The notes below the pieces were generated by a model. The model was not told where the DNA came from. It worked only from the letters and a program-made list of their open reading frames with translations, and did not search any database. Below, one piece after another: positions 3,349 to 50,843 of a stretch of 64,000 nt of DNA (its first letter is position 1; each line of letters begins with the position of its first letter). This DNA is from Anatilimnocola sp. NA78. Its GTDB lineage: Bacteria > Planctomycetota > Planctomycetia > Pirellulales > Pirellulaceae. The position numbers were made by a program, and so were the translations under genes. The DNA is taken from contig NZ_CP187419.1 of NCBI RefSeq assembly GCF_049819085.1, positions 5,021,518 through 5,085,517 of the forward strand, read 5' to 3'.

Positions 3349-5727
3349 CTACTTACCGCTGCGTTCCAAAATGCGGATGGTCATTTCGCCGATATCCGAC
3401 TGCCGCTCCGAAACCTTGCGAACTTCACCCTTCAGCACGTCGTCGAATTCACCTTCTGCTGGACGAGCCGACTCGAGCGATTCCGTACGGCGATTCACAC
3501 GAAGCTGAGCAGCCCGCAGCAACTTCAGTTCGGCCGAGTTAGGCAGCAAAGGCTCGTTGCCTCCACCACCACCGCCGCCGCCACCCTCGCCGCCGTCTTT
3601 TTGCTTCTGGGCTTTTTGCAACGATTCGATTAGTTCTTCGAGCGTGATCTCAATTTCTCGCTGCATCGTTTGCGTGTAACCGTCCGTGCGGAGGTTATCC
3701 GAAAGGAGCGTACCGACCGTGATCAAATCGTCTCGCAGTTGTTCGACCACATCCGGAAAGACCACGCTGGTACCATCATCGAGAATGATCTCAAGCGCCT
3801 GCTGAGCTTTGAAGGCCAGCGGGATGCGGTCGGACTGCCCGTCTTGCTTGATGATGGCCAGGCCTCGTTCATCTTCACCGAGCGACTTCAGCGTATTGCG
3901 ATCGCTGCGGGCCAGGTTGCCCATGTTGTCGACTTTCTTTTTGTCGATGACGAGCGTGCGAGCCGAAAGGTCTTTCTGCACCGCCAGCATCTCACGGAAG
4001 CGAGCCTCCAACTTGGCGAGCTTTTCGACCTGGGTCTCTTCGCGCAACTGAGCGAGCCGCTCTTCAATTTCCTTCAAGGCATCTTCGAGATCTTTGATCG
4101 CCTTGCCTTGCTTGCGCGAGGCATCGGAAGGGTCTTGCTTGCGAAGATCGCCGGACGCCTGCTCCATCGACTTTTGAGCTTGTTGAACCTTTTGCTGGCC
4201 GGGCTTTGGCTTACCACCTTCGCCACCGCCCGATTCACCGCCACCAGGCTGGCCACCGCCAGGCTGACCGCCACCTTCCCCACCCTTTTTCTCGTCCTGC
4301 TTCATCTTCTCCTGAATCTTGCCGGTTTGATTGGCAATATCGTCTTGCTTGCCGGCCATCTTCTCAAATGCTTCGGGCGGCAAGGAGGCAATGCGTTGCG
4401 ATTCCTTCTTCAGCTCTCCCAAGGCTCGCTGGAGATTTTCGAGCGCGGTCTGCTCGTCTTGCTGGGCCGCTTTCCCTTTCCCTTCTTGCAGTTTGCCTTC
4501 GGCCTGCTTTTGATTTTCGATGGCTTGCTTTAGCGGGCGCTCGCCAGCTTCCGGTGGTCGTTGTGGCTGAACCCCCGGTTGTCCGCCTCCCGATTGACCT
4601 TCACCGGGCTTACCTTCACCGGGCTTACCTTCTCCGGGCTTACCTTCTCCGGGCTTACCTTCTCCGGGCTTACCTTCTCCGGGCTTACCTTCTCCAGGCT
4701 TACCTTCTCCAGGCTTACCTTCACCGGGCTTACCTTCACCGGGCTTACCTTCTCCAGGCTTACCTTCACCGGGCTTACCTTCACCGGGCTTACCTTCACC
4801 GGGCTTACCTTCACCGGGCTTACCTTCACCGGGCTTACCTTCACCGGGCTTACCTTCACCGGGCTTACCTTCACCGGGCTTACCTTCACCGGGCTTACCT
4901 TCACCGGGCTTACCTTCACCGGGCTTACCTTCACCGGGCTTACCTTCACCGGGCTTACCTTCGGCGTTTCCCTCTGCGGCCGGTTTGTCGCCGGCTTCTT
5001 TGCCGATCTGTTCAGCAACCGATTGAGTTCCTTCGCGGACCTTGGCTTGTTCGCTGGCAACTTTGCCCAGGCCTTGGATGCCGCTTTCGCGAGCCGTTTC
5101 GGTATTTCCGATAACTCCCTTTTGCTGCTCGATCAGGGCTTCGACCGCTTTGATCTTGGCTTCGAGCGATTTCAGCGTGTCATCTTTATTGGCGACGCGA
5201 TCGGCCTCTCGCTTTTCGCCCTTTTGCTGCTGAATGACTTCTTCGATCTGCTTCTTCCATTCGCTGAGCTTTTCGAACTCCTCACGAATCTTGTCCTTGT
5301 CGTTTTTCTCATCCAGCAACAGGGCGAGCAGGTCTTTCAGATCGCCGAGAATCTTTTGTTCTTCCGCTTTGGCCGGATCGAGTTGCTGCTGATCGAGCAT
5401 GCGGGTGATGAGGGCCATCCGCCCCTTGATGCCCAAGGCCTGAGACTGCTTCAGCGCGTCGGCCAGTTTCTGGGCTCGCTCGGGTTCCGCTTTGGCGAGT
5501 GCCTGAGCCAGTTGATTGAACTTCCGTTCCAGGTCCTCCACCATTCGCTCGACGTGAGCCTGCCGGACACCAAGTGGCGTCGTTTTAAAGCTGTCTGCTT
5601 CACTCGGCTTCGTCTGCCCGCTGGCCACTCCCGCAAGCAACAGGCCCGCCGCTAACGCCGCCGTCATGCCCAAGCGACACCCTCGCGCGGTGAGGCAATT
5701 CCACATGCGGGAAGTCAAACGATCCAT
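3349..5727 (-). CDS. Secreted coiled-coil protein carrying a (GEGKP)n pentapeptide repeat array plus poly-Gly/Gly-Gln tracts
   Basis: ORF track 3349..6078. The most plausible start is MDRLTSRMW... with a following signal-like [15 protein letters not shown] (codon arithmetic gives 5727). About 24 GEGKP repeats, long charged coiled-coil segments, and a [15 protein letters not shown] tract. Confidence 0.55.
4597..4965. repeat. Intragenic 15-bp tandem repeat (gggcttaccttcacc, ~24 copies; minor ttcacc/ttctcc variants)
   Basis: Read directly in sequence lines 4561-4980. Encodes (GEGKP)n on the minus strand. Alternate-frame ORFs (HRAYL..., GLTFT..., KVSPV...) are artefacts of this repeat. Confidence 0.9.
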
Positions 5728-6017
5728 GAGCCAATCCTCCGGGGCAGCCTGCGAACCGACGCGCACGTCGCGCGGGAATTGCCAGGCAGCAACGCAACCG
5801 CAACGAGCACTGGCGTGGTAACTGTCCCTTAGTCCAGTTGGGGGGCAGTTTGGTTCAATCCACTCCAATATGACGGGCGAAACAGGCAGCCGCAAAAGCA
5901 AATGGCCAAATTTTCGCAAATTGGTCGGCGGGCGACGCTGAAGTGGGTGGGGCGAGCATGCCCAGAAGATGGTGCGAACGGCCGCGAGCGAAGCCCAGCT
6001 TTCCAATCCGTCCCTTT

Positions 6018-6158
6018 TGTCCAAAAACCCTCGCGATTGTTGGACGGGTGACTTCCTGTGGCCGCGGCTGCAACTCATTGCTGCGTCGTGCCTTGCTGTC
6101 TATTCGGCACATTTCCAAACACGCCTATCTGTCCAACAACCCCCTCAGTTTTTGGACA
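6018..6158. promoter_or_regulatory. Two copies of inverted repeat TGTCCAA-N15-TTGGAC(G/A) (6018-6046 and 6130-6158) upstream of pyrB
   Basis: Seen in sequence. Identical half-sites and identical 15-nt spacing, 112 bp apart, 350-480 bp upstream of the pyrB start, in a 600-bp non-coding leader. Confidence 0.35.
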
Positions 6159-6512
6159 CGTCGCTTTTTTGATGTACTGCGTTTTCTGGCAGCGGAACCA
6201 TCTCCGTACGAAACGCCCTCGCCACCGGCGATCAGGCTTCATCGCGCCGCTTGCCAGCCACCAAATTGTGCCAAAACCGAATTGCATTAGCTCCGCTTGC
6301 TGAATTATTGTCAATACAAGTTTGGCAATTCTTTAGCTTTCGATCTTCACCTAGAAATGAGTCGCTGGGGTGGCCCTGGCTTCACGATACATCCATGGGC
6401 GCTGTCTCCGTCCTTGCGTGATCGACTCAGGCTGCTAGAATCCTCGCAATTTTGTACGCCACGCACTCTGCTGACTCACGGGCAGAGCACCGCCAGAATT
6501 AGAGGATGCTGC

Positions 6513-37145: not shown

Positions 37146-37808
37146 CCGCCTGTTCCACACGTTTCGACTTACGTCGAATCGCAACGCCTTCGTGCAGAGT
37201 CGCCGCGCTTGCATCCCGCCAAGCCGCCCGATATAATCCCGACATTATCGCAATGTCGTTAGTTATTGTCAAGTGTTTATTATGGACCTCCTTGCACAAC
37301 AACCCCTGAACAGAATCGCATTACCCTGGCCCCTTCCTCTCTAGCCTCTAGCCCCGCTCCTCGCCAGATTCAATTCCAACAGTCGAGCCAGCAGTTCGTC
37401 GTCGGTGAGCGTGACGGGCCATCCGCAATCGGCCAAGATCAACTCTGCGGGCACGACTCACCGCGATTCCGCAATTGGATTGAGGAAACCCGAAGCGTGA
37501 GCGAGGAGCGCGCTGTGGAAGTCTTGAACTGAACTCCCCGGGGGTTCGTTTACAAATCGTTCGTGCGATGTTCGAGGGCAGAAACGAATGGTCTGGCCAC
37601 GACGACACTTCCGTGCGGCGAAGAGCACTCTCCTCGCTCACGCTTCGGGTTACCTGAACAGGCGAGCGTGACGCCCGTAGTCAAGTCGAACGAATTCCGC
37701 GGCCAGCTTGGTATGGCAACGACGAACTAGCATCCACCGCTGTTGTAAGGGGATGCTGTCGAAATTCAGCCTAACGAATCCCTCGCATTGCTTGAGGCGC
37801 ACGTCGCG

Positions 37809-38267
37809 TTATTTCAGTTCCACCTTCAAATCGGTCGAGCCCGCGGGGGGAATTTCCAGCGACAGACCACTCGTGGTGGTGCTGCCGAACTTGGCGGGAA
37901 TGGGCGATTTGAACCCGCCGGGCGGTTCCGGCGCGAGGACTCCCGGCTCGATCTCTTGCGCGCCGCTCACGGAAACCGTCAGCGTGTACTTGCCGGCCGG
38001 AGCGCCTTCCTTTTCGCCATACGACTTCAGCGCGAAGCGACCGTCGCTCCCGGTCTTGGCGGTGGCTGTGACTTTGCCTTCCGAATGCTGGAAGGAGACG
38101 TCCGCGTTGGCGATCGGACTTCCTTGGTACGTCACCGTTCCGGCTGCTGGCACCGTGGGGAGTTGTTCGGGGCCGGCAGGCCCGCCACCAGTGCAGCCCA
38201 CCAGAGACAAAACCACACTCGAAAGGACAACGGCGAGGATTTGCAAAGACAATATTTTCGAAGACAA
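37809..38267 (-). CDS. Lipoprotein with carboxypeptidase-regulatory/transthyretin-like domain (DUF1559 partner)
   Basis: Lipobox LSLVGCTGG. GTVTYQGSPIANADVSF...DGRFAL pattern. Directly downstream of the DUF1559 gene. Confidence 0.65.
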   Translation of the reverse strand: MSSKILSLQILAVVLSSVVLSLVGCTGGGPAGPEQLPTVPAAGTVTYQGSPIANADVSFQHSEGKVTATAKTGSDGRFALKSYGEKEGAPAGKYTLTVSVSGAQEIEPGVLAPEPPGGFKSPIPAKFGSTTTSGLSLEIPPAGSTDLKVELK

Positions 38268-38456
38268 GAAAGAGACTCCAGAAGAAGTTGCGGAGATGGA
38301 GATTCTGAAAATCGCAGGCCAGGCGAGCCTGTTGGCAGGCTGTCTCGCTTGTCGCGCAATGATGCGTGGCGCGACAAGAAAGTGCGACCACTCAGCAAGC
38401 AGGCCGGCGAAGGCGATTCGCCGGCTTCAACACGACAGGACCGACGGAAGCAAACC

Positions 38457-39515
38457 TTAGTCGAGCTGCAGGCTCTCAGAGCCCGAGCGGCTGCCCAGAG
38501 CGCCGAAGACGCCGTAGGGGCTCAGGCCCGTGGGGTTCTTCCCGTCGGCGTTCAGGTCGCCGCAGTTGATGTTTTGCGTGATAAACCGTACCGAGCCGTC
38601 TCCCATCGCCGCATTCACGCCGCCCGGGTGATAGCTGCTGGGCGGATACAGGCCGTTCTGAGCATCGTGGGCGTTCCAAGCACAAGAGACCGAGTTCGGC
38701 GGAGCATTCGTGGTCAGACCATGAAAGCCCATGCCGCCATCGCCCCAGCGCACACCCGCCCAAGCGCCGGTCGTCGAGATCGCCCAGGTCTTGGTGGTGG
38801 TGTTGTACTGCGAGAGGCAGCCATTGGGCGTCAAGAACCATTCGCCCCCCTGGTGGGCCGTCAGCGTCGACTTCACGCTGCTGATTCCCTTACGCCGTTC
38901 AGAGACGGCAATCGTGTTGCTCAGTCCGTCCGTCACGTCGGCCAGGCGGAAGCCCTTGTCGGTGTTCGTGCGACCAAACATGCCACGGCTTTGATTGTCG
39001 GCGTTGTTCTGGCCGATCGAGTCGCCGCTGCACAGCATGTAGTTCGTTTTGCCGATGCCACCCGTCGTGGTGAACGCGTCGGAGGGACAAGTCCAACTCT
39101 TCACCGTGTTTTGCCAGGGAGTATAAGAGCCGTTCCACGGTTCCGGACCACCAGGGGCGTAGGTCGTGGCGCCAATCACCTGTTGAGTCATGACCAAATC
39201 GTGGAGCGGCTTCTGTTCCATGAAAGGGAGTAGGGTGATGAACCCGCTCTTGCGCCCTTGATAGCTGCTGGGGTACGCGGTGAAGCGACCCTCGCGGAAC
39301 GGCAAGTAGCCATAAGTGTCGTGATGATTGTGGAGCGCGATGCCAAGTTGCTTGTGATGGTTGCTGCACTGGATGCGACGAGCCGCTTCGCGCGCGGCCT
39401 GCACCGCAGGAAGCAACAGGGCGACCAAGACGCCAATAATGGCAATGACAACCAACAGTTCGACCAGGGTGAACCCCCTGGCACGAACGCGATCTCGAAA
39501 CATGAGGGGAGTCAC
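38457..39515 (-). CDS. DUF1559 protein with prepilin-type N-terminal cleavage/methylation domain
   Basis: [54 protein letters not shown]... A family hallmark of Planctomycetota. Confidence 0.8.
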
Positions 39516-39992: not shown

Positions 39993-41090
39993 ATGGCAAC
40001 GACGAACGAGCAACAACCTTTGTTGTATGCAGATGCTGTCGAAACGATTCCCGCTGACGAGTCGGAAGATATTCGGCTGACGATTGCGGCGATGCAGCGG
40101 GTGCTGGAGCAGACGTTTCAAAAGAGTGGTCAACGGCGGCGCGATGTCCATTTGAAGTCGCACGGCTGCGCACTCGGGACGATGCAAGTGCTGCCGAACT
40201 TGCCAGCGGAACTGGCCCAGGGCATCTTTGCTCGCGAGCAGACTTTCGAGGCGGTGGTGCGGTTCTCGAATGCGGCCAGTTCGCCCCAGCCTGACTATGT
40301 GCCCGATGGTCGTGGTCTGGCCGTGAAGGTTTTGGACGTCGGAGGCGAATCGCTCACCGCGGAAAGTGGCACTGGCGCGCAAGCGAGCACCGCGACGCAA
40401 GACTTCGTCATGGTCAATCATCCGGTCTTCATTGCCCGCAATGTGAAGGACTACTTGCGCATTCAGCAGACCATCGCCGACACCGGCGACAACAAGCTGG
40501 CGACGCTCAAAGATGCGTTGACGGGTGGCGATTGGAACCCGCTGAATTGGCACTGGCGCGAAGCACTCACGGCTGCCCAAATCGCCAGCAAGTTGCCCGC
40601 CCATCCCGCCAGTTTGACTTACTTCAGCATGGCGCCGATCCGCTTTGGCGATTACGTCGCCAAGTATCGCGTGCGGCCCGCCTGCGAGATTGCTGGCTCC
40701 ATTCTCGAACTCGTGAATCAACTCGGCCAGCAAGCCGATGCGTTTCGCTGGATGCTCGAAGAAACGCTGCGATCTCAGTACCTGCTGTTCGAATTTCAAA
40801 TTCAGCTGCGAACCTCAGCCGAGAAGATGCCCATCGAAGATGCGATGGTGGAATGGCCGGAGAGCGAATCGCACTATCGCACGGTGGCGTTGCTATTATT
40901 GCCCCGTCAGGAAATCGCGACGGCTGAGCAACGCGCGACCTGCGATCAGCTGATGTTCGATGTGTGGCACGCAGTCGCGGCGCACCGACCACTAGGGGGC
41001 ATCAACCGCCTGAGGCGCGAAGTCTATCCCATCTCTGCTGCCTGGCGACGCCAGACAGCGAGCGAACATCCGGCGAGCGAATCGCCCTAA
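39993..41090 (+). CDS. Catalase-related (mini-catalase/heme peroxidase-like) protein
   Basis: RDVHLKSHGCALG, AVVRFSNA and DGRGLAVKV match the catalase heme-core motifs; 365 aa, no C-terminal catalase extension. Confidence 0.6.
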   Translation: MATTNEQQPLLYADAVETIPADESEDIRLTIAAMQRVLEQTFQKSGQRRRDVHLKSHGCALGTMQVLPNLPAELAQGIFAREQTFEAVVRFSNAASSPQPDYVPDGRGLAVKVLDVGGESLTAESGTGAQASTATQDFVMVNHPVFIARNVKDYLRIQQTIADTGDNKLATLKDALTGGDWNPLNWHWREALTAAQIASKLPAHPASLTYFSMAPIRFGDYVAKYRVRPACEIAGSILELVNQLGQQADAFRWMLEETLRSQYLLFEFQIQLRTSAEKMPIEDAMVEWPESESHYRTVALLLLPRQEIATAEQRATCDQLMFDVWHAVAAHRPLGGINRLRREVYPISAAWRRQTASEHPASESP

Positions 41091-41569: not shown

Positions 41570-42373
41570 ATGAAGAATCGCACAAACCACTTGGCCACCA
41601 TGCTGGTCGCATTTCTTCTCGGCTGGTCGTCGTCGACGATCGCTGCAGATGCCGTTCCACTGCCGGCCAAGGAGAAGTTTCATCTCTTCCTGCTTGTGGG
41701 GCAGTCAAACATGGCGGGTCGCGGCAAGGTCGAAGCCGAAGACAAGCAGCCCGCGCCTCGCGTGTTGATGCTCAACAAAGAGGGCGACTGGGTCCCCGCC
41801 GTCGATCCACTTCACTTCGACAAGTCGGCCGCTGGTGTCGGCCTCGGCAAGACTTTTGGCAAGTTGATTGCCGAAGCAAATCCGGACGTCACCATCGGCC
41901 TGATTCCCTGTGCCGTCGGCGGCTCGCCCATCGACTCGTGGAAGCCGGGAGTTCTCTACAAGCCAACCAACAGCCATCCCTGGGACGATGCCATCCGTCG
42001 TGCCAAGCTGGCGCAAGAGAAGGGCGTGCTCAAGGGTATGCTCTGGCACCAAGGCGAGTCCGATTGCTCCGCCAAGGCTGCTCCTGCCTATGCTGAAAAA
42101 CTACAGTCGCTCGTGGCTGCCTTTCGTAAAGAGCTGAATGCTGACGTGCCGTTTCTCGTGGGTCAGCTTGGTCAGTTCGACGAGGTTCCTTGGGACGACA
42201 ACCGCAAGCTGGTCGACCAGGCCCATCGCGAGCTTCCCAAGCACGTCACCAACAGCGCCTTCGTTCCCTCCGACGGCCTGAAGCACAAAGGGGACAAAGT
42301 CCACTTCGACTCCGCCGGCCTGCGCGAGTTCGGCAAGCGGTACGCCGAGGCCTACCTCAAGCTTGCCAAGTAA
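41570..42373 (+). CDS. Sialate-O-acetylesterase-like (SASA/DUF303) carbohydrate esterase
   Basis: Signal peptide; GQSNMAGRG catalytic-Ser motif; 267 aa. Confidence 0.7.
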   Translation: MKNRTNHLATMLVAFLLGWSSSTIAADAVPLPAKEKFHLFLLVGQSNMAGRGKVEAEDKQPAPRVLMLNKEGDWVPAVDPLHFDKSAAGVGLGKTFGKLIAEANPDVTIGLIPCAVGGSPIDSWKPGVLYKPTNSHPWDDAIRRAKLAQEKGVLKGMLWHQGESDCSAKAAPAYAEKLQSLVAAFRKELNADVPFLVGQLGQFDEVPWDDNRKLVDQAHRELPKHVTNSAFVPSDGLKHKGDKVHFDSAGLREFGKRYAEAYLKLAK

Positions 42374-42439
42374 GCCGGCAACAAGCGGTACTCGGCGATG
42401 TCCCGGCGCTTCGACCAACTGCCGGCCCTGCCCCGCCGG

Positions 42440-42960
42440 GTTTCCCCTCCGCTGAACAGTCCTCCGCATCCCTCTCGGCATTCCATTTTTGATAACTTTT
42501 TGCGCGAAAAATCGAAACCAACGCCTCGCTCTAACCCGTTCTGCTCCAAACTATTGCGATCACAACCGACCCAAAATCACCCGTTTCCTGATAACCATTT
42601 GATAACCACTCCTGCCCCTGTTCACTCCGCAGCCTGAACAGGCCCTAAACAGGGGGTCCAGTCTTCGTGGCGGCAGACCTCCTGGTCTGCCTTCCCCCGG
42701 CCTCTCCATTCTCTTCTGACGTCGCGGCAATCCTCCCGAACTTGCCTCGCTGAACAGTCCCTGTTCAGCGCTTCTGACAGCCCGTCTTGATAACTTTTTG
42801 CGCGAAAAATCGCATCCGCTTCCTCGCCCTAACCAGTTCTGCTTCAAGCCATTGCAATCAGAACCTCCCCAAAATCACCCGTTTCCCGATAACCGTTTGA
42901 TAACCACTCCTGCCCCCTGTGCGCTCCCTAGCCTGAACAGGCCCTAAACGGGTGGCTCAG
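42440..42960. repeat. Two tandem ~298-bp non-coding repeats, each with a TGAACAG/CTGTTCA hairpin, a TTGATAACTTTTTGCGCGAAAAATCG box and a CTGATAACC-N4-GATAACC box
   Basis: Period of 298 bp measured from gctgaacag (42451 / 42749) and ttgataac (42489 / 42787). ~85% identity between copies. Confidence 0.85.
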
Positions 42961-43251
42961 ACTGCCCCTCCTCGGTTAACCGAGCCGCTTGCGGCCGTTG
43001 AACTGGCAATCAAGTCAGTCCACACTTCTCCCGCGCAACCGCGTGGGTTAACCAAATACTGGGGCAGTAGGTCCAGGAACTCCGTACCTGACGACCTCGC
43101 TGAGTTGCAGTCAGGCGCGCGACGCTGGCCTTGCCCGACTCCGCCACTCGCTCCCATAAACCTTAAAATGTCCTTGACACTAAGTCAACAAATTGTAACA
43201 ATAATTCGGTGTGACACCGTCCGGCCAAAGTGCCCGGACCGCTCAACTCCG

Positions 43252-43722
43252 CTACTGAAGATCCCGAACAGAACTTTCGAAGCAATTGAGTTCAGCCTCA
43301 ATCACATCCCAAAATGAAGTCCCGCAAATGCTGAATGCGCCTCTTCCCTCGAAGTAGAAGTAGATTGGAAGCTCAACAAGAGGAGTGCCAGTTTCAAAAA
43401 ACATAAACTGTTCCCCCTGTCTCATTGCAAATACAAAAGCATTGTTGGGAATGGGCAACTTGCCATCTTCCCAGTTTGCCACCATCTCCTTCGCACGACT
43501 TTGCAATTCGACGAGCTGTTTGACTCGAAAATCGACATCGTCCCAAAAAGCTCCCGCGCTGTGCCCCACGGCCTTCAAGAACGAGCGGTAGTCTTCCGGC
43601 AAGGCAACCCCAAGCGTGGTTTCCAGCGAAGCTATCTCTACCTCGAATGCGCCGCAAATGGGTTGATGTTTCGCCAACCCGGCGGCAACAATTCGGTCAA
43701 CTAGCTTTCTCGAAGTGAGCAT
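43252..43722 (-). CDS. SUKH-1 (SMI1/KNR4) family immunity-type protein
   Basis: LPEDYRSFLKAVGHSAGAFWDD matches the SMI1/KNR4 core. Start placed at MLTSRK. The ORF-track N-terminal extension is read-through into the upstream repeat. Confidence 0.6.
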   Translation of the reverse strand: MLTSRKLVDRIVAAGLAKHQPICGAFEVEIASLETTLGVALPEDYRSFLKAVGHSAGAFWDDVDFRVKQLVELQSRAKEMVANWEDGKLPIPNNAFVFAMRQGEQFMFFETGTPLVELPIYFYFEGRGAFSICGTSFWDVIEAELNCFESSVRDLQ

Positions 43723-43786
43723 TGAACTCTTTCCAAACGCACTTTCTCTCGCTCGATGGTGCAGCAGCTTTTCGTAACTAAGTCCC

Positions 43787-43969
43787 CGCCAGGTGCCACT
43801 GGCTCGGCCAGTGCAGATTGGCCATCGCCGGGTTGCCTCCCAGCAGAAGAGAACCTCTTGCCTTTTTGCACAGGACAACCTCTTGGCAAAATGGCAAATC
43901 TCCAGCCGCCTTCGATCCAGCTACCCATTCGAGCCGGTCATTCACTGGCGAAGCCAGTGGCACCCGGCG
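43787..43969. repeat. MITE/attC-like 183-bp palindromic element, copy A (17-bp terminal inverted repeats CGCCAGGTGCCACTGGC / GCCAGTGGCACCCGGCG)
   Basis: Three >90% identical copies (A, B, C). Each sits 6-60 bp beyond the stop of a minus-strand gene. Confidence 0.8.
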
Positions 43970-44029
43970 CACGACCACGTCTCAAATCACAGGGACCGCG
44001 ACGCCCGCCCGGTCCGCTCCAATGGCTGG

Positions 44030-44524
44030 TTATGTGCCGGCCGACTGCCGCCACACCGGTTTGGCCGCACACCGCAAATCGACGCCGCGCCACTTCAACA
44101 GAGCGTAGAGAGCGCGGTCAATTAGCAACCTATCCGCCCAGATTGCGATCGAGCCCACCAAGGTCTGACCGTCGAGCGGATCGGCATAGACGACGACCTG
44201 AATCCGCCAGTCTTTGTAAACATCTATCAACAGCGCCCGCAGCTCATCGAGGAATGCCTGTGAAAAGCTGTCGATCGACGCCTCCAGATGCCGCGTGTGA
44301 TCCGGCCACCAGTCCCAGCCGATTTCCAGATGCTTCTCCACGTAGCTGGGCTCATACAAGCGATCCGCCACCGCCACGATTCGCTTGCGAAGCTCCTCGT
44401 CCCTCCGCACGTAATCCGCCTCTGCCTGTTCGCCTTTGAACTTCGCGATCCGCGCAGAGGCTTTGAACAGATCGTCAAAGACATCATCTTTCGCGGCTAT
44501 CGTGACCTCGCGGACGTCATTCAC
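44030..44524 (-). CDS. Hypothetical cassette protein (GTG start); last ~8 codons share nucleotide homology with the 3' end of the gene at 48145
   Basis: 164-aa acidic cytoplasmic protein. Its start abuts the duplicated recombinase-5' segment. Confidence 0.45.
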   Translation of the reverse strand: MNDVREVTIAAKDDVFDDLFKASARIAKFKGEQAEADYVRRDEELRKRIVAVADRLYEPSYVEKHLEIGWDWWPDHTRHLEASIDSFSQAFLDELRALLIDVYKDWRIQVVVYADPLDGQTLVGSIAIWADRLLIDRALYALLKWRGVDLRCAAKPVWRQSAGT

Positions 44525-44654
44525 AAGCGGCTCGCCTCCGGCAAATAACTTCTTATTCTACAGAATCGCCACGAGGCTTGATTCTTGATAACAGGAGTTT
44601 TATTCTGTCGAACGGGAAATAGATGTCAATCATTTCCTTCAGAATCTTCCAAGC

Positions 44655-44801
44655 TTGCGACGGAGCGGGAGGTGTTCGGTGGCCACAGAAACGACTCCAG
44701 TCAAGCCCGGCCCGAAGCTGTTGGAGCGAATGCGTCACAAGTTACGCGCCAAGCATTTGGCATTGAGCACCGAACGGAGTTACCTGCATTGGGCCGAGCG
44801 G
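44655..44801 (+). pseudogene. 5' fragment (first ~49 codons) of an integron-integrase-like tyrosine recombinase, copy 1, interrupted by repeat element X
   Basis: KLLERMRHKLRAKHLALSTERSYLHWAER matches the IntI/Xer N-terminal SAM-like domain motif (R.[22 protein letters not shown]). The reading frame then diverges into the inserted repeat. Confidence 0.6.
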
Positions 44802-45023
44802 CGGGTGGCATGGGTTCTACCCATGTCCTCCTTGGTCTTCTGAGGTAAGGATCCTCGCCAGCCGAGGCAAAACTCAACTCGATTTCACCAGCAACTGCAG
44901 TCCTGCGTTACCCCAGAACAGTTTGAGCTCCACCAAAACTGGCACTCGACGTCACACGAGAATTGCCAGCAGACATGGGTAAAACCCATGCCACCCAGAG
45001 ATGGCGAATGACCACGCATGCCA
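44801..45023. repeat. Second repeat family (element X, ~220 bp) with terminal inverted repeats GGTGGCATGGGTTnTACCCATG / CATGGGTAAAACCCATGCCACC, copy 1
   Basis: Near-identical copy at 46276-46499. Confidence 0.75.
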
Positions 45024-45029
45024 ACACCG

Positions 45030-45212
45030 CGCCAGGTGCCACTGGCTCGGCCAGTGCAGATTGGCTCTCGCTGGGTTGCCTCCCAGCGGAAGAGAACCTC
45101 TTGCCTCTTTGCACAGGGCAACGTCTTGGCAAAATGGCAAATCTCCAGCCGCCTTCGATCCAGCTACCCATTCGAGCCGGTCAGGCACTGGCGAAGCCAG
45201 TGGCACCCGGCG
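45030..45212. repeat. MITE/attC-like 183-bp element, copy B
   Basis: Same termini as copy A. 13 bp beyond the stop of the LRR gene. Confidence 0.8.
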
Positions 45213-45225
45213 TTGTAACCCATGC

Positions 45226-45981
45226 TCATTCCGCAATCAAAAAATCATTCTCCAATTGCCAGTCGCCATTAGAAGTGTGAACCACCTCTAATTCTGGGCG
45301 CAGCTGCCGCAGGCGATCAACACACGTTGATGATACGAGGGACCCGGAGAGATCCACTCGTCTCAATCGAGTCGATGCAATCAGTTTCTCGATTATAGCA
45401 TCTGACACCTGAGTTAACGACACATCAAAGGAATGCAGGATCGGCAATCTTAAGAGACAAAGTGCGACATTATCATCCATTTTAGTCCGCGAACAGTCAA
45501 GCTCCTCTATGCCAGAAAAAATACTTACAAGTTCCCTTGCGAAATCAACGTCAACTTGTTCTCGCGAAAGTGCAATCCTTCGCACATTTCTCCAGCCTCT
45601 CATCGATTCGACAGCTGAAGGCGGCAGTTCTTTTAAAAATATATATTGAGCTGACGTAGATCTTGGCATCATCGCGTTGCACGCTCCGCCTTTGCAGTCC
45701 ACGATCACCGTCCTCAGCGAGCGCAACTCCTCAATTGCCCGAAAGTCGCTCATTGCTCCGCAGTCAATCCTGGCAAGTGCAGGATGAGCGGTGGGCAGCC
45801 CAATCCATGAGGGAAATTCAAGTGAAGATTGCTCATAGAGTTCGAGGCTGCATCCATTTTCCTTGAGCTCCCGCTCAGCTGACAGCAAGTCACGATGAAA
45901 TCTCAGTCGCTCGCTGATACAAAAGGCTACAAGAGCTGCGACAACCATCAAGAGCAATAATGCGCGGATCGAGAATGTCAT
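45226..45981 (-). CDS. Leucine-rich-repeat (RNI-like) membrane-anchored protein; low-GC, likely horizontally acquired
   Basis: Start at MTFSIRALLLLMVVAALVAFC (TM), then L-rich repeats. The DNA of 45.3-46.1 kb is visibly AT-richer than its surroundings. Confidence 0.5.
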   Translation of the reverse strand: MTFSIRALLLLMVVAALVAFCISERLRFHRDLLSAERELKENGCSLELYEQSSLEFPSWIGLPTAHPALARIDCGAMSDFRAIEELRSLRTVIVDCKGGACNAMMPRSTSAQYIFLKELPPSAVESMRGWRNVRRIALSREQVDVDFARELVSIFSGIEELDCSRTKMDDNVALCLLRLPILHSFDVSLTQVSDAIIEKLIASTRLRRVDLSGSLVSSTCVDRLRQLRPELEVVHTSNGDWQLENDFLIAE

Positions 45982-46275
45982 TTTTAGTCTACTTAACGGA
46001 GATTCGCGCTGGTGTATATTGGCCAGTGTGCTTTTTGTAGTGACAGCCCGTTTGCCGATTGCGCCTGTTTGACTCATCCTAGCTAAACCCCCAGCTATCC
46101 TGAGAATTCCATTGCGCAAATCTGTTTACTATAGTAATGTTGTCTAAGTGCCCTTGACTAATCCCCACAGGCCGCAACACTTGGTGCATAGGATCACTTG
46201 AGTAGGTTTGATCTCCGTTGGCGTCCGATATTGTGATGCTTTGTAAAATCAAGTGCGAGCCGAACCAAAATCCTG

Positions 46276-46499
46276 CGGCGGGTGGCATGGGTTGTACCCA
46301 TGTTCTTCTTGGTCTTCTGAGGTAAGGATCCTTGCCAGCCAAGGCAAAACTCAACTCGATTTCACCAGCAACTGCAGCGCGGCGTTACCTCAGAACGGTT
46401 TGAGCTCCACCAAAACTGGCACGCGACGGTCCGCGAGAGTTGCCAGCAAACATGGGTAAAACCCATGCCACCCAGAGATGGCGAATGACCACGCATGCC
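46276..46499. repeat. Element X, copy 2
   Basis: Same TIRs as copy 1. 32 bp beyond the stop of the 46532 gene. Confidence 0.75.
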
Positions 46500-46531
46500 A
46501 CCCCGCCGCCGCAGTCAGGTGCAACTGATTG

Positions 46532-47206
46532 TTATCCCGCCTTTTCAATGCGTGCTTTTACCCATTCAACAAACGTGGCCGGATCCATGTTACCCGCAAC
46601 ACGGAACTCACAAGGCTCCTCGGAGTCCCAGTGAGCTTCGGGCGTCGGAAATTCGCCTTGTCTGTCTTCGCCCCAATACATCGTCGTCTCTTCGTAGTCA
46701 TTGATCCTGAAAGCCGAACCTTTATTGCCTTCAAAGATGTACATCCCCGACACCTTGAATTCGTCGGCTATGCCCGGTTGACCAAAAGCACGAACGAGCG
46801 AGCGAGGGCTGACATGCAACATGGTCCCGAACCCATTCAAATCCTTCGTGGTGTCGGAGACAAGATCAAATGTACTGCTGTCGTCAGCGGGCGCAACGAC
46901 CGGCTCTTGTTTCTTACGAAAACCGGGTTTGCCCCTGAAAAACTCATGTTTGCTCACCCAGACGATCTGGCCGAAAACATCGTACTCTTCACCGTCAAGT
47001 TGAAAAGAGCCAATGGTGTTGATTCGACCTTCCGTTTGACTGCTGAACGTGAGCTTCAGATTCGTTGCATCTGCGGGCATGTTGTTCACAAACGCCGTGG
47101 AAGCGAACTGCATGAAGTCGGCAAAACTTGGCGGAGTAGTTTTGCGCCAACATGACTTGTAGGATTCGACGTCAATCAACGCTTCAAGTTGTTCTTTGAC
47201 GGTCAT
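46532..47206 (-). CDS. Hypothetical cassette protein (224 aa, acidic)
   Basis: ATG start 12 nt from the second copy of the recombinase-5' segment. No recognisable domain. Confidence 0.45.
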   Translation of the reverse strand: MTVKEQLEALIDVESYKSCWRKTTPPSFADFMQFASTAFVNNMPADATNLKLTFSSQTEGRINTIGSFQLDGEEYDVFGQIVWVSKHEFFRGKPGFRKKQEPVVAPADDSSTFDLVSDTTKDLNGFGTMLHVSPRSLVRAFGQPGIADEFKVSGMYIFEGNKGSAFRINDYEETTMYWGEDRQGEFPTPEAHWDSEEPCEFRVAGNMDPATFVEWVKARIEKAG

Positions 47207-47328
47207 GTCTTTAGCGGGATAACTTCTTATTCTACAGAATCGCCACGAGGCTTGATTCTTGATAACAGGAGTTTTATTCTGTCGAACGGGAAATAGAAGT
47301 CAATCATTTCCTTCAGAATCTTCCAAGC

Positions 47329-47484
47329 TTGCGACGGAGCGGGAGGTGTTCGGTGGCTACAGAAACGACTCCAGTCAAGCCCGGCCCGAAGCTCTTGGAG
47401 CGAATGCGTGACAAGTTGCGTGCCAAGCATTTGGCATTGAGCACCGAACGGAGTTACCTGCATTGGGCCGAGCGGTTCATACGC
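47329..47484 (+). pseudogene. 5' fragment of integron-integrase-like tyrosine recombinase, copy 2, truncated exactly at the left end of MITE-like copy C
   Basis: ...LRAKHLALSTERSYLHWAERFIR then the frame enters cgccaggtgccactggc. 258 bp (47219-47477) is ~97% identical to 44545-44800. Confidence 0.6.
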
Positions 47485-47664
47485 CAGGTGCCACTGGCTC
47501 GGCCAGTGCAGATTGGCCATCGCCGGGTTGCCTCCCAGCAGAAGTGAACCTCTTGCCTTTTTGCACAGGGCAACATCTTGGCAAAATGGCAAATCTCCAG
47601 CCGCCTTCGATCCCACTACCCATTCGAGCCGGTCAGGCACTGGCGAAGCCAGTGGCAACCGGCG
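47482..47664. repeat. MITE/attC-like 183-bp element, copy C
   Basis: Same termini as copies A and B. Ends 30 bp beyond the stop of the gene at 47695. Confidence 0.8.
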
Positions 47665-47694
47665 CCCCTGTCGATAGGGAAGGCCATAGAGAGG

Positions 47695-48060
47695 TTAGGC
47701 CGACTTCCTTTGCAACCACTCCTGATACTGTCTCCAATCATCGTCAATCGCCGCTTGCTGCACGGTTTCTGAAACATCGCCAAATTCAATCTCGCGCATG
47801 TATCTCGGATATTCCGCCTCCGCAAGGACATCTCGGTAGTCTTGGATCGCGGTCTGCGTTTCGTCCAGAAGTCGAGCAAGATCACCGTTTACGAGCTTGA
47901 GGATGGCGAGTCGCACGCGCGGGTTGGGGCGATTCCAATCCTGCTTTCCGAACTCTTCGAGAATCGAAAGCGCCAGTGCAGCCTGAGCATCGCCAAAGTC
48001 GCGGAGCGCGATCCTCTTTACGTCTTCGTAAGTCACATCTGGGATGGGTTGTTCCGCCAT
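47695..48060 (-). CDS. Hypothetical small cassette protein (121 aa)
   Basis: Acidic, helical, no known domain. Immunity-protein-like context. Confidence 0.4.
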   Translation of the reverse strand: MAEQPIPDVTYEDVKRIALRDFGDAQAALALSILEEFGKQDWNRPNPRVRLAILKLVNGDLARLLDETQTAIQDYRDVLAEAEYPRYMREIEFGDVSETVQQAAIDDDWRQYQEWLQRKSA

Positions 48061-48144
48061 AAGCGTGTCGGCCTAACGACCAAGTTCACCTGCTGCGGCG
48101 GCGGTGAGACGTTGAACTCTGAAAAAGCCGTAATGCCGCCGCAG

Positions 48145-48669
48145 TCAGGTGCAACGGCTGGTTATGGCCGGCCGGTTGCCGTCGAACTCCACATGGAAGC
48201 CTACCGGTAGAAGCCAATACGGAGCGAATCGCGCGTCATGAATCGTCAGCTCGTACAGCGACTGAAAATGCAAGTTCGCGGGTTCATTCACATCCAAGGG
48301 ATCGTCGGCGACTCCAACGAACCAACCCGATTTGTTGCCTTCAAGCTGATCGAGTCGCTCCATGAATGCACGCGGCGACCCCGGCATGTAAGACCTGCTG
48401 ATGAGCGCCGCATGCCACAGCGCACAGCGCTCCGGCTCAACCCGCTGTTTGGCCAACACAGCCGACTGTTCCGCGTCGATACGTTCCACTGGCCCGAAAT
48501 CTCGAGTGAACGACGCCATGGCCAGGAAATCAAGTGTCTCCAAGTCCAATTGGCCGTTCTCGACGATGGCCTGAAAGATGAACCAGCCGTACTCGACTGA
48601 CTCGCCGTGCTTAACGGTGCGCGTGGAGAGGAAGTCGAGGACATTCGATCGTAGAGCACTTGAGGCCAT
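48145..48669 (-). CDS. Hypothetical cassette protein (174 aa)
   Basis: Its 3' end shares the ggctggttatgGccggccgGTtgcc segment with the 3' end of the 44030 gene. A hairpin, cacctgctgcggcggcgg ... ccgccgcagtcaggtg, lies 3' of its stop. Confidence 0.4.
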   Translation of the reverse strand: MASSALRSNVLDFLSTRTVKHGESVEYGWFIFQAIVENGQLDLETLDFLAMASFTRDFGPVERIDAEQSAVLAKQRVEPERCALWHAALISRSYMPGSPRAFMERLDQLEGNKSGWFVGVADDPLDVNEPANLHFQSLYELTIHDARFAPYWLLPVGFHVEFDGNRPAITSRCT

Positions 48670-48922
48670 AACTACTTATAATCTTGCGCGGCGGTCATGT
48701 TAACCTAAGCCGCGATCAAGGGATCGAATCCGATCTATCTGAAGTAGGTTAAGTGGGTTACGCTCCGAATGTCAACTGATAAGCAAACCAGCAATTCTTG
48801 CGCAGCGTGAGTCCAACTAAAAGGCTGCTGCTGAGGTTGGGGAAAAGTTCCGGACCGGTTGCTTACGGGGTGCGAGAACAACCGGATTGAGAGCGTGAGG
48901 AAAATGACCGAGCAAATTGGGG

Positions 48923-49405
48923 CTAAGCGATCGATTGGTCAGCAAGTGCAACGGCGGGCCGTGGGGCCAAGACGAGCCGCATGAACACTTTGTCCAGGCC
49001 CGGCTGATACCCGTCGACGATCACCCGAAACGCCTCGAAGTCGAACCGGGCGAAAAACGGAGCGGTGTGCTGACTCGTGTCGATCAAAACGCACCACGCA
49101 TGGGTAATCTGCCGAATTTGCTCGAGCCGCCACTGGAGCAGGCTCGCCCCTACTCCCCGTCGGTGCCAGTTCGCGCGGACCATGCCCCATTCCAGGTAAC
49201 CCACCCCATAGTCATCGACACGAAACCCACCGCACCCGCGGACCTCCCCCGCGATCTCAGCGACGAAGAAAGGCTGATCCCGCCGCCGCAGGTAGGCCGC
49301 GAAGAGATCTCGCTCAGGCGCGGTGAAATACTTCGGCCGGTTGCTGTCGAAGATTTCCAAGCAGGCCGACTCGTCGTCTTGTCGGTACTCACGAATGTCT
49401 CCCAA
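48923..49405 (-). CDS. GNAT-family N-acetyltransferase
   Basis: RGVGASLLQWRL acetyl-CoA binding motif; 160 aa. Confidence 0.7.
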   Translation of the reverse strand: MGDIREYRQDDESACLEIFDSNRPKYFTAPERDLFAAYLRRRDQPFFVAEIAGEVRGCGGFRVDDYGVGYLEWGMVRANWHRRGVGASLLQWRLEQIRQITHAWCVLIDTSQHTAPFFARFDFEAFRVIVDGYQPGLDKVFMRLVLAPRPAVALADQSIA

Positions 49406-49547
49406 GAGCGACCTCCGCTGCTGAACGGATCAATGTTCAATGGCCAACACCGCGCCGACAAACTCCGACTTTACCAAAACGCTCAACGCCAAGTGCCGCT
49501 GGCTCGGCTGGCGAAGCCACTGGCATAGCGCAAGATCTGTTCGCGAC

Positions 49548-50843
49548 CTACTTCCCCGCGACGTCGTAACAGAAGATCAACTCCTGATCGCGCAAAAACA
49601 GTTTGCTGTTGGCAACGACCGGCGGCGTCCAGATTTTGCCGCTCGGTTTGCGCAGCTTCGATTGCTCGGGAATGCGGAACGTCGCGACGATGTTAGGAGC
49701 CGTCGGATTGGCCTCGACGACCGCCAGGGTGCCATCACCTTCGGCGTACGTAAAAAGTTGGCCATCGGCATAAGTGACGGAACCAGCCCGCAGCTTCGCG
49801 CGCTCGGTCCAGGCGATTTCGCCCGATTCGAGTGACTGGCACAGCCAGCCGCGGCCACCAGCGCCATAGATGTGTTCGCCGACGAGCACCACATTGCCGT
49901 GATGATTGGCCAGGTTGCGGTTCGTGTACACTTCCTCCGCAGCGAACTTGCCGTCGCTCGGTTTGATCCGCAGCAACGTACAACCATGCGCGCCACCGAC
50001 GGTCACATAGACAAGCGAGCCGCGCACGATGGGACTATTGACGACTTCGGTCCCGTACTTGGTTTCCCACATCCACAACAGCGAGCCATCTTGAGCACTC
50101 ACCCCAAACACGCCCTGATTCGTGAGCACCACATATTGTCGCTGGCCGTTCACTTCGGCAAGCATCGGCGACGCATACGCTGCCTGCTGAGTGACTTCTT
50201 TGCTGCGCCATAGCACTTCGCCGGTCTTTTTATTCAAAGCAGCGACGGTTCCTTGTGGTCCGCCAGGCAGACAGACCAGTTGATCCCCGTCGACGAGCGG
50301 CGACCAGGTGAATCCCCAGCCCAGCTTCTTGGGGCCACCACCAATGGGATTCACTTCGGCGGCCAGATCGGCGGGGAGATTCTTTTTCCAAACCACTTTG
50401 CCATCTGCTTTGCCGACACAGACCAGGTCGCCATTGCCACCCAGCGCGAAGATCAAGTCGCCATCGACCGTGGGTGTGGCACTGGGCCCCGCGCTCCAGT
50501 TGTTCCCTTTGAAGTCGAACAGCGGACCAATTTCGGTGGCCCACGCTTCTCTCACGTTGCCATCGACAAAGCTGCTGGTATCGAGCGCAATCAGGTACTC
50601 TTTGCCGTCACGGGCACCCATCGTGTAGAGCCTGTCGCCAACGATCGCTGGTCCCGAGTAGCCAATGCCCGCATTGCGGTAAGTCCACAGGAGCTTGGGG
50701 CCTTCCTTCGGCCAGTCTTTCAACAGTCCTTTTTCTGCCGAGACGTCGTCACGGTTCGGCCCGCGATACTGCGGCCAATCGTCGGCAACCGCCACCAGTG
50801 GGAGCGCGCAGCAAAGGGCGAGAGTGAGCGAAGAGGCGTTCAT
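49548..50843 (-). CDS. PQQ-repeat beta-propeller protein (BamB-like fold), secreted
   Basis: Start at MNASSLTLALCCALPLVAVADDWPQYRG. Repeated PQQ-type blades. Confidence 0.7.
   Translation of the reverse strand: MNASSLTLALCCALPLVAVADDWPQYRGPNRDDVSAEKGLLKDWPKEGPKLLWTYRNAGIGYSGPAIVGDRLYTMGARDGKEYLIALDTSSFVDGNVREAWATEIGPLFDFKGNNWSAGPSATPTVDGDLIFALGGNGDLVCVGKADGKVVWKKNLPADLAAEVNPIGGGPKKLGWGFTWSPLVDGDQLVCLPGGPQGTVAALNKKTGEVLWRSKEVTQQAAYASPMLAEVNGQRQYVVLTNQGVFGVSAQDGSLLWMWETKYGTEVVNSPIVRGSLVYVTVGGAHGCTLLRIKPSDGKFAAEEVYTNRNLANHHGNVVLVGEHIYGAGGRGWLCQSLESGEIAWTERAKLRAGSVTYADGQLFTYAEGDGTLAVVEANPTAPNIVATFRIPEQSKLRKPSGKIWTPPVVANSKLFLRDQELIFCYDVAGK

Follow-up and report, generated by a model that had tools for sequence, protein, structure and literature searches.

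Probable relics of integron platforms within a cassette array of the planctomycete Anatilimnocola sp. NA78

A 64,000-nt stretch of the genome of the planctomycete Anatilimnocola sp. NA78 (contig NZ_CP187419.1, positions 5,021,518 to 5,085,517, forward strand; hereafter the window, numbered from its first letter) carries two copies of a 257-nt module, located at 44545-44801 and 47219-47475 and identical at 251 of 257 positions (98%). [quoted passage not shown] On the sequence comparisons described below, we put the probability of this explanation at roughly 0.8.

Integrase stubs and attI-like ends of the duplicated module

The two copies comprise the following parts, a vertical bar marking the crossover point:

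44679-44801, plus strand: intI stub of copy 1 (GTG start, codons 1-41, then the 236-nt hairpin element; Pfam, NCBIfam, tblastn)
47353-47484, plus strand: intI stub of copy 2 (GTG start, codons 1 to ~44, through ERFIR, then the 184-nt hairpin element)
44549-44678, minus strand: attI-like region of copy 1 (crossover G 44549, ...AATAAGAAG|TTATTTGCCGG; extends to the intI start codon)
47223-47352, minus strand: attI-like region of copy 2 (crossover G 47223, ...AATAAGAAG|TTATCCCGC)

In both copies, the plus-strand open reading frame (ORF) aligns with positions 1-45 of 85 of the Pfam domain Phage_int_SAM_4, with an E-value of 1.2e-7 for copy 2, whose match scores above the gathering score, and of 1.7e-4 for copy 1. 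Within NCBIfam the stub matches integron-integrase models only, TIGR02249 and PRK15417, the match to TIGR02249 covering positions 1-46 of 315 (E 6.8e-7); this points to a fragment of an integron-type integrase, not of a XerC/D-like or phage-integrase-like recombinase. The start codon is likely the GTG at 44679 and 47353, with GGGAGG just before it, and the same GTG opens the NCBI-annotated protein of copy 2 (P0001, 64 aa, 'phage integrase N-terminal SAM-like domain-containing protein', Anatilimnocola sp. NA78). When the whole window was searched by tblastn with a full-length planctomycete IntI (locus L003; 342 aa, TIGR02249 445 bits), only residues 16-52/54 were matched, at the two module sites, and no catalytic domain or further piece of intI was detected in the 64 kb. 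A functional platform encodes both the catalytic domain and the IntI-specific additional domain, whereas here residues ~1-45 alone are present; the modules are unable to make a recombinase.

Comparison of the two copies revealed neither terminal inverted repeats nor a flanking target-site duplication. Identity between the copies stops on the minus strand at ...ATTCTGTAGAATAAGAAG|TTAT, and the left end of the module, ...AATAAGAAG|TTAT on that strand, falls exactly on the integron crossover G|TT. The last four bases common to both copies (minus-strand TTAT) are part of the downstream cassettes, and the platform-derived part ends at G 44549 in copy 1 and at G 47223 in copy 2. The final 22 nt of the module occur at two places in the window, both of them module copies, with 0.00 occurrences expected; the module end had no match in viral contigs, and Rfam covariance models gave no match in 42000-50000 at E ≤ 1. 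An earlier note on this DNA, made from the letters alone, had described the duplication (at ~97% identity) and an N-terminal tyrosine recombinase fragment with no catalytic domain in the window, and both observations are borne out, the fragment measuring 41-45 codons. Strictly, the platform is shorter than the repeat, as the final TTAT belongs to the cassettes, and the note overlooked the surrounding mosaic of array-specific repeats (184 and 236 nt) truncating the integrase gene.

In the modules, 130 nt separate the crossover from the intI start. The cassette at copy 1 begins with GTTATTTGCCGG, the reverse complement (11/12) of CCGGCACATAAC at that cassette's stop codon, and the cassette at copy 2 begins with GTTATCCCGC, the reverse complement (10/10) of GCGGGATAAC (46540-46531) at the stop of gene 46532-47206; in either cassette, the R'' box overlaps the stop of the only ORF present. 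Since a different cassette, starting with the complement of its own R'', follows each copy, site-specific insertion took place here with two partners at the least. No inverted-repeat partner of the module end was found in the window, which makes the site attI-like rather than attC-like. The end is also unstructured as single-stranded DNA (z = -0.3 for the attI-like region of copy 2), and is therefore not the 3' half of an attC. In this light, the module end behaves as an attI, i.e., a double-stranded site beside the integrase 5' end at which different cassettes were joined.

An octamer box is found in the attI-like region of each copy:

44585-44592, minus strand: GTTATCAA box of copy 1 (complement TTGATAAC), 43 nt upstream of the GTTAT crossover core
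47259-47266, minus strand: GTTATCAA box of copy 2, from motif enrichment

The box, pointed out in the earlier note and indeed present as TTGATAAC at both positions, repeats the GTTAT crossover core in direct orientation. The octamer occurs eight times in the window (0.79 expected); six of these eight, every one on the minus strand, fall within 42489-47266. In attI1, DR1 and DR2 are direct repeats of the core upstream of the crossover; by analogy, the box could be a candidate accessory integrase-binding site.

The arrangement was compared with intact integrons. The Solimonas terrae locus L002 encodes an IntI of 336 aa (474 bits against TIGR02249). On the opposite strand, its first cassette begins with G|TTCGGCGTCATC at a point 115 nt upstream of the ATG of intI, and this cassette matches its own R'' at 12/13 positions. 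Two metagenomic loci offer a paired comparison, L017 encoding an intact 315-aa IntI and L016 only the first 82 codons. They share 282 nt at 91% identity, ending at CACTTG|TT on the opposite strand, beyond which lie different cassettes with their own R'' matches (11/11 in L016, 10/10 in L017). Their codon differences comprise 19 synonymous and 4 non-synonymous changes, with 1/35 upstream, the pattern that divergence of still-functional genes before truncation would give. Solimonas terrae itself has two near-identical intI loci, the intact L002 3606-4616 (336 aa) and L001 2382-3113 (243 aa, matched in two stretches), which has lost the additional-domain region through an internal deletion.

All seven full-length or near-full-length relatives that were scanned, found by N-terminal similarity, have TIGR02249 as their best family (204-474 bits) and share the additional-domain motif KYP...W.W...FP...DPR.G...RRHH. 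Among 19 metagenomic hits, seven consist of the N-terminal stub only (L010/L011, L016, L018, L021, L022 and L025), a frequency biased by the N-terminal query itself and including one identical sequence from two assemblies (L010/L011). These stubs span 27 to 140 residues, some of them on contigs of 64-79 kb (L010/L011, 3835-4020 / 5983-6168; L016, 3844-4134; L022, 5983-6507). Integron integrases of ~414-459 aa (L019 3102-4346, L020; P0004, P0008) match the stub at positions ~110-170 and not at their N-terminus, and the two-stretch matches of P0004 and P0008 suggest a duplicated N-terminal SAM-like domain. A predicted protein of 136 aa (P0016) combines an IntI-like N-terminus (~45 aa) with a cysteine-rich CxxC...CxNRHCPxC segment, which we take to resemble the zinc-binding N-terminus of IS91-family transposases.

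An intact parent of the stubs was not found by a word-indexed search of 5.8 billion clusters (90% identity), which returned the two NA78 stubs only. Likewise, an exhaustive HMMER search of 1.84 billion representatives yielded nothing above 69% identity besides these two; its library is clustered at 50% identity and could hide a parent, a gap covered by the word-indexed search at 90%. No genome or metagenome contig locus was closer to the NA78 stub than 63% over 30 residues, and the best 120 matches to a chimeric IntI query were all integron integrases, none of them named Anatilimnocola.

The cassette array and its hairpin repeats

The modules lie in an array of small same-strand ORFs, with the following features:

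42400-49547, minus strand: cassette array (seven small same-strand ORFs; two ~299-nt repeats at the distal end)
48923-49405, minus strand: GNAT gene
48145-48669, minus strand: Imm33-like gene
47695-48060, minus strand: 121-aa gene
46532-47206, minus strand: 224-aa gene
45226-46119, minus strand: 297-aa gene
43252-43722, minus strand: SUKH/SMI1 gene
44030-44548, minus strand: cassette at attI copy 1 (164-aa ORF of unknown function; R'' box CCGGCACATAAC at the stop; 3' half of attC lost, the 184-nt element in its place)
46255-47222, minus strand: cassette at attI copy 2 (224-aa ORF and an attC from 46540 to ~46259, whose loop holds the 236-nt element)
48066-48170, minus strand: canonical attC of the Imm33-like cassette (GGCCATAAC ... 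GTTAGGCC; bulged hairpin, R''/R' pairing, z = -4.4)

The array genes are mutually unrelated, and their GC content varies from 0.48 to 0.62, compared with 0.58-0.60 in the flanking genes; GNAT, Imm33-like and SUKH proteins are typical cassette cargo. The next cassette after the canonical attC begins at G|TTAGGCCGAC, with the G at 48077, and its start GTTAGGCCGAC matches its own R'' GTCGGCCTAAC at the stop codon at 11/11 positions, which is the signature of insertion by an integron integrase. R''/L'' halves at 44033, 46535 and 48165 overlap the stops of the 164-, 224- and 174-aa genes, and a short attC-like site is found at 48755-48698 (8-bp R''/R' stem, z = -1.4). The attCs of the 121-aa and 164-aa cassettes are without their 3' halves. 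Judged by these features, i.e., at least two attC sites, ORFs in one orientation and no intI gene nearby, the region corresponds to a cassette array of the CALIN kind.

Two hairpin repeats border the stubs:

47482-47665, no strand assigned: 184-nt hairpin repeat 'D1', adjoining the copy 2 stub (further copies at 45030-45213 and 43787-43970)
44798-45033, no strand assigned: 236-nt hairpin repeat 'D3', between the stub of copy 1 and D1 (25-nt terminal inverted repeats, GGGTGGCATGGGTT ... TACCCATG)

The three copies of the 184-nt element are 94-96% identical, form a long hairpin (z = -3.8) and occur in the array only, together with a short 45-nt form at 49486-49530. The arms are themselves palindromes (CACTGGC-NNN-GCCAGTG), and no target duplication accompanies the element. 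Each copy lies 13-60 nt past a cassette stop codon, where the remainder of an attC is expected. Matches of the element to viral contigs are confined to a palindromic core of 20-29 nt, and similar CACTGGC...GCCAGTG hairpins occur in the planctomycete array of L003 (L003 14470-14585). The 236-nt element, also restricted to the array within the window, has a second copy at 46275-46510, inside an attC loop. The 184-nt and 236-nt repeats may be either degenerate attC variants or miniature elements that target attC sites.

The stub of copy 2 directly adjoins the 184-nt element; in copy 1 the two are kept apart by the 236-nt element, which follows CGCTCGG, and six bases (TTCATA) are gone. Several of the repeat junctions show microhomology and are not clean site-specific joints. 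A third stub, P0002, is located elsewhere in the NA78 genome and breaks off after codon 33, truncated by a sequence that starts like the 236-nt element. The equivalent site for P0002 is inferred to be CCGTTCGG, on the basis of the stubs in the window; the two sites together hint that this element may prefer certain targets.

Two broader assignments for these repeats were considered and rejected. To read the module together with the 184-nt element as a single giant attC belonging to the upstream cassette would call for pairing with the sequence after R'', and nothing near the module end pairs with it. The left arm of the 184-nt element as native intI sequence is unsupported: it adds few bits (~15 residues of the hidden Markov model alignment), and the element is also found without a stub. 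In the putative intI frame, copy b of the element carries two non-synonymous changes.

Other repeats were noted in the window. At the distal end of the array, two tandem repeats of ~299 nt (42400-42965) share 82-87% identity in the segments that match best; each contains, on the minus strand, GGTTATCAAAYGGTTATC, with two GTTATC 11 nt apart, and ~100 nt further TTTTTCGCGCAAAAAGTTATCAA, and both also carry the GTTATCAA octamer of the module. These repeats may represent additional integrase-binding or attI-like DNA, or else cassettes without a coding region. At 4484-5037, 25 or more 15-nt tandem repeat units lie inside a minus-strand ORF of 909 aa (3349-6078), where they presumably encode a pentapeptide-repeat stretch. 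A 52-nt repeat is present at 37713-37764 and 39993-40044 (85% identical); its first copy starts 5 nt inside ORF 37708-38460 and its second lies at the 5' end of the plus-strand ORF 39993-41090 (MATTNEQ...), and the two ORFs may be paralogous genes.

Origin of the modules and alternative explanations

If the modules are decayed platforms, the integrase bodies would have been lost through rearrangements or deletions at the array-specific hairpin repeats (184 and 236 nt) that now abut the stubs. With its integrase genes destroyed at these repeats, the array would represent a series of sub-arrays with a dead platform at the head of each, and the modules could still act as internal attI landing sites were an integrase supplied in trans.

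The two copies differ at six positions, one in the 134-nt attI part and five in the 123-nt coding part, where four of the five changes are synonymous. For the stub this gives pS 0.134 and pN 0.011 (binomial P 0.014, which transition bias would weaken to ~0.04), and 1/134 changes in the attI part against 4 of ~30 synonymous sites gives a Fisher P of 0.004. The adjacent 184-nt elements differ by 4-6%. Synonymous-biased changes in the stub combined with a near-invariant attI part are unexpected for copies of a dead gene. Two histories are possible. Unequal recombination between hairpin copies may have duplicated the [hairpin-stub-attI] unit, with turnover of the cassettes afterwards, and the bias would then reflect chance or gene conversion. 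Alternatively, two platforms may have diverged while functional and then decayed separately at a hairpin-prone spot, a history which fits the 4:1 ratio of synonymous to non-synonymous changes and the 1/134 in the attI part. The identity of the module is the same under either history.

Several observations weigh against decayed platforms. The stub ends lie within 9 nt of each other and the 184-nt element comes after both; such near-equal truncation points speak for one truncation that was later duplicated, a history that fits poorly with the bias of the divergence towards synonymous changes. In L003, the nearest full-length planctomycete integron, the layout is 'inverted' and attI comes behind the stop of intI, whereas the NA78 stubs have the classical divergent arrangement. 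The module end agrees with the L003 attI at 14/20 positions in fixed register, with a local alignment score equal to the shuffle mean, and homology between the two was rejected as not significant by shuffling. As attI sites have no universal consensus, the term 'attI' is based here on position and junction logic. Lastly, a loose R'/R'' test (11-mer, one mismatch) has a background of 8.4 hits per 64-kb strand and was dropped as a stand-alone detector for that reason; the R'/R'' evidence weighs through the location of the matches, which fall on the edge of the repeat and on the stop of the one ORF in between.

The modules could instead be the 3' sites of delta-attI-type cassettes, so that a unit of upstream gene, hairpin, stub and attI would be mobilisable, with a partial attI in place of attC, and the module would have been copied as an integrase excised and re-inserted such cassettes. 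Cassettes of the form attC-ORF-delta-attI are indeed known from class 1 and class 2 mobile integrons, where 14-244 nt of attI replace attC within the array (one keeps 244 nt of attI2), arise from a rearrangement at R'' and are recombinogenic, IntI1 recombining them (2026, PMC12901181). In the NA78 array, the attI-derived end indeed lies downstream of two cassettes, and both units are bounded by G|TT on each side (48077 to 47223 and 46265 to 44549). However, the genes of the two units differ, which means that the module was not carried along by a single cassette, and while the published rearrangement occurs at R'', the upstream R'' is intact here and is separated from the module by 30 nt and the 184-nt hairpin (in copy 1 also by the 236-nt hairpin). 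Units of 0.85 and 1.7 kb that include part of an integrase gene are, moreover, not described for delta-attI cassettes, and we consider this origin improbable.

Selection is a further alternative: the 41-45-codon peptide might work as a micro-protein or regulator, or else the DNA of the stub might be needed in cis, as a promoter or for integrase-binding sites. The excess of synonymous changes and the near-invariance of the attI part beside more divergent 184-nt repeats would be in line with this, as would the three NA78 stubs, which all retain codons 1-33 and two of which are annotated as proteins by NCBI. The numbers are tiny, however, and the L016 stub compared with the intact L017 yields a similar pattern, i.e., one of divergence before truncation; in addition, the stub spans half of the SAM-like domain, and the C-terminal tails of the three stubs are unrelated. 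Maintenance by selection is thus very doubtful. Least credible of all is a generic dispersed repeat, MITE-like (miniature inverted-repeat transposable element) or a segmental duplication, that contains a recombinase fragment and has integron-like junctions by coincidence. The region is full of other repeats, and several junctions show microhomology; against this, the module has neither terminal inverted repeats nor a target duplication, both left ends fall on G|TT followed by a cassette-specific R' that matches the R'' at the stop codon, a canonical attC adjoins, and the stub matches no NCBIfam models other than those of integron integrases.

Decayed platforms may also retain a promoter. A consensus scan identified one candidate per copy:

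44602-44629, minus strand: candidate outward promoter of copy 1 (TTGACA, 16 nt, CAGAAT; 10/12), directed towards the cassette gene
47276-47303, minus strand: candidate outward promoter of copy 2 (TTGACT, 16 nt, CAGAAT; 9/12)

The 4.5-kb region scanned contains four sigma-70-like sites, compared with 2.5 ± 1.3 in shuffles, and the sole non-coding difference between the copies falls in the -35 hexamer of the candidate. The modules lie 20 nt and 12 nt from the start codons on the minus strand (GTG at 44524 and ATG at 47206, respectively), distances on which the earlier note proves accurate; these 12-20 nt are the 5' ends of the two cassettes and lie outside the module. The note's analogy with an integron was apt insofar as the modules contain a true intI-attI region with a G|TT crossover in a cassette array. 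Its other half, that the module supplies a shared promoter or leader to the cassette genes, is plausible but weakly suggested, by the one weak sigma-70-like match per copy; outward transcription into the adjacent cassette may still start from a promoter in the intergenic part of the modules. A sigma-54-like TGGCACG-N4-TTGT, seen by eye within the stub on the minus strand, was dropped as it is not conserved between the copies and its GC doublet is missing.

The cassette promoter Pc lies inside intI1 in class 1 integrons. By analogy, retained heads might split the NA78 array into independently expressed and independently loadable sub-arrays, served by an integrase encoded elsewhere, with ~33-45 codons kept for the promoter or for integrase-binding sites; we regard such an organisation as unlikely.

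Relation to known integrons and CALINs

The modules share the basic layout of an integron platform, as seen in the class 1 5' conserved segment and in S. terrae L002: the 5' end of intI is divergent from the cassettes, the site lies ~115-130 nt upstream of the intI start, and a G|TT crossover is followed by cassettes with R''/R' complementarity. They differ in that NA78 keeps codons 1-45 only, in two copies within one array and a third elsewhere, and in that the module has no sequence similarity to any characterised attI and its Pc is only a candidate. Tandem or complex class 1 integrons also contain partial duplications of the 5' conserved segment, with several intI/attI segments in one array, and result from recent rearrangements on plasmids and transposons mediated by insertion sequences (IS) or IS common regions (ISCR); the joints in NA78, in contrast, are hairpin repeats in a chromosomal array. 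With delta-attI cassettes the modules have in common an attI-derived sequence inside the array, downstream of a cassette ORF, which ends at the crossover and is followed by the next cassette, whereas the NA78 relic runs through attI into intI, has a hairpin repeat as its joint and occurs twice in one planctomycete chromosomal array.

As an attC array without a functional intI nearby, the NA78 region resembles CALINs. Cury et al. (2016, PMC4889954) detected intI pseudogenes near 15/279 CALINs, using C-terminal profiles only, and loss of intI is one proposed origin of these clusters; N-terminal stubs such as those of NA78 are invisible to that C-terminal screen. Close counterparts are L016/L017 and the other metagenomic stubs (L010/L011, L018, L021, L022, L025), with an intI 5' fragment and attI, a cassette at the same G|TT as in an intact relative, and synonymous-biased divergence. 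Unlike the NA78 modules, they were seen once per locus examined and belong to other integrase lineages, 45-63% identical to the NA78 stub.

The NA78 case is a new structural variant of a known integron system, and its explanation is structurally tidy rather than surprising. Sequence alone sufficed to map an attI site, together with its crossover, in a planctomycete integron lineage that is uncharacterised. An array without an integrase can still hold recognisable platform relics, in the form of N-terminal stubs that CALIN screens based on C-terminal profiles miss. If these relics keep promoter or attI activity, cassettes deep in the array would be neither silent nor frozen, which bears on the expression and reshuffling of sedentary arrays. 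If retained heads do organise the array into sub-arrays, N-terminal intI stubs would be the sign of a general way of organising integrons, and of giving rise to CALINs, that has been overlooked.

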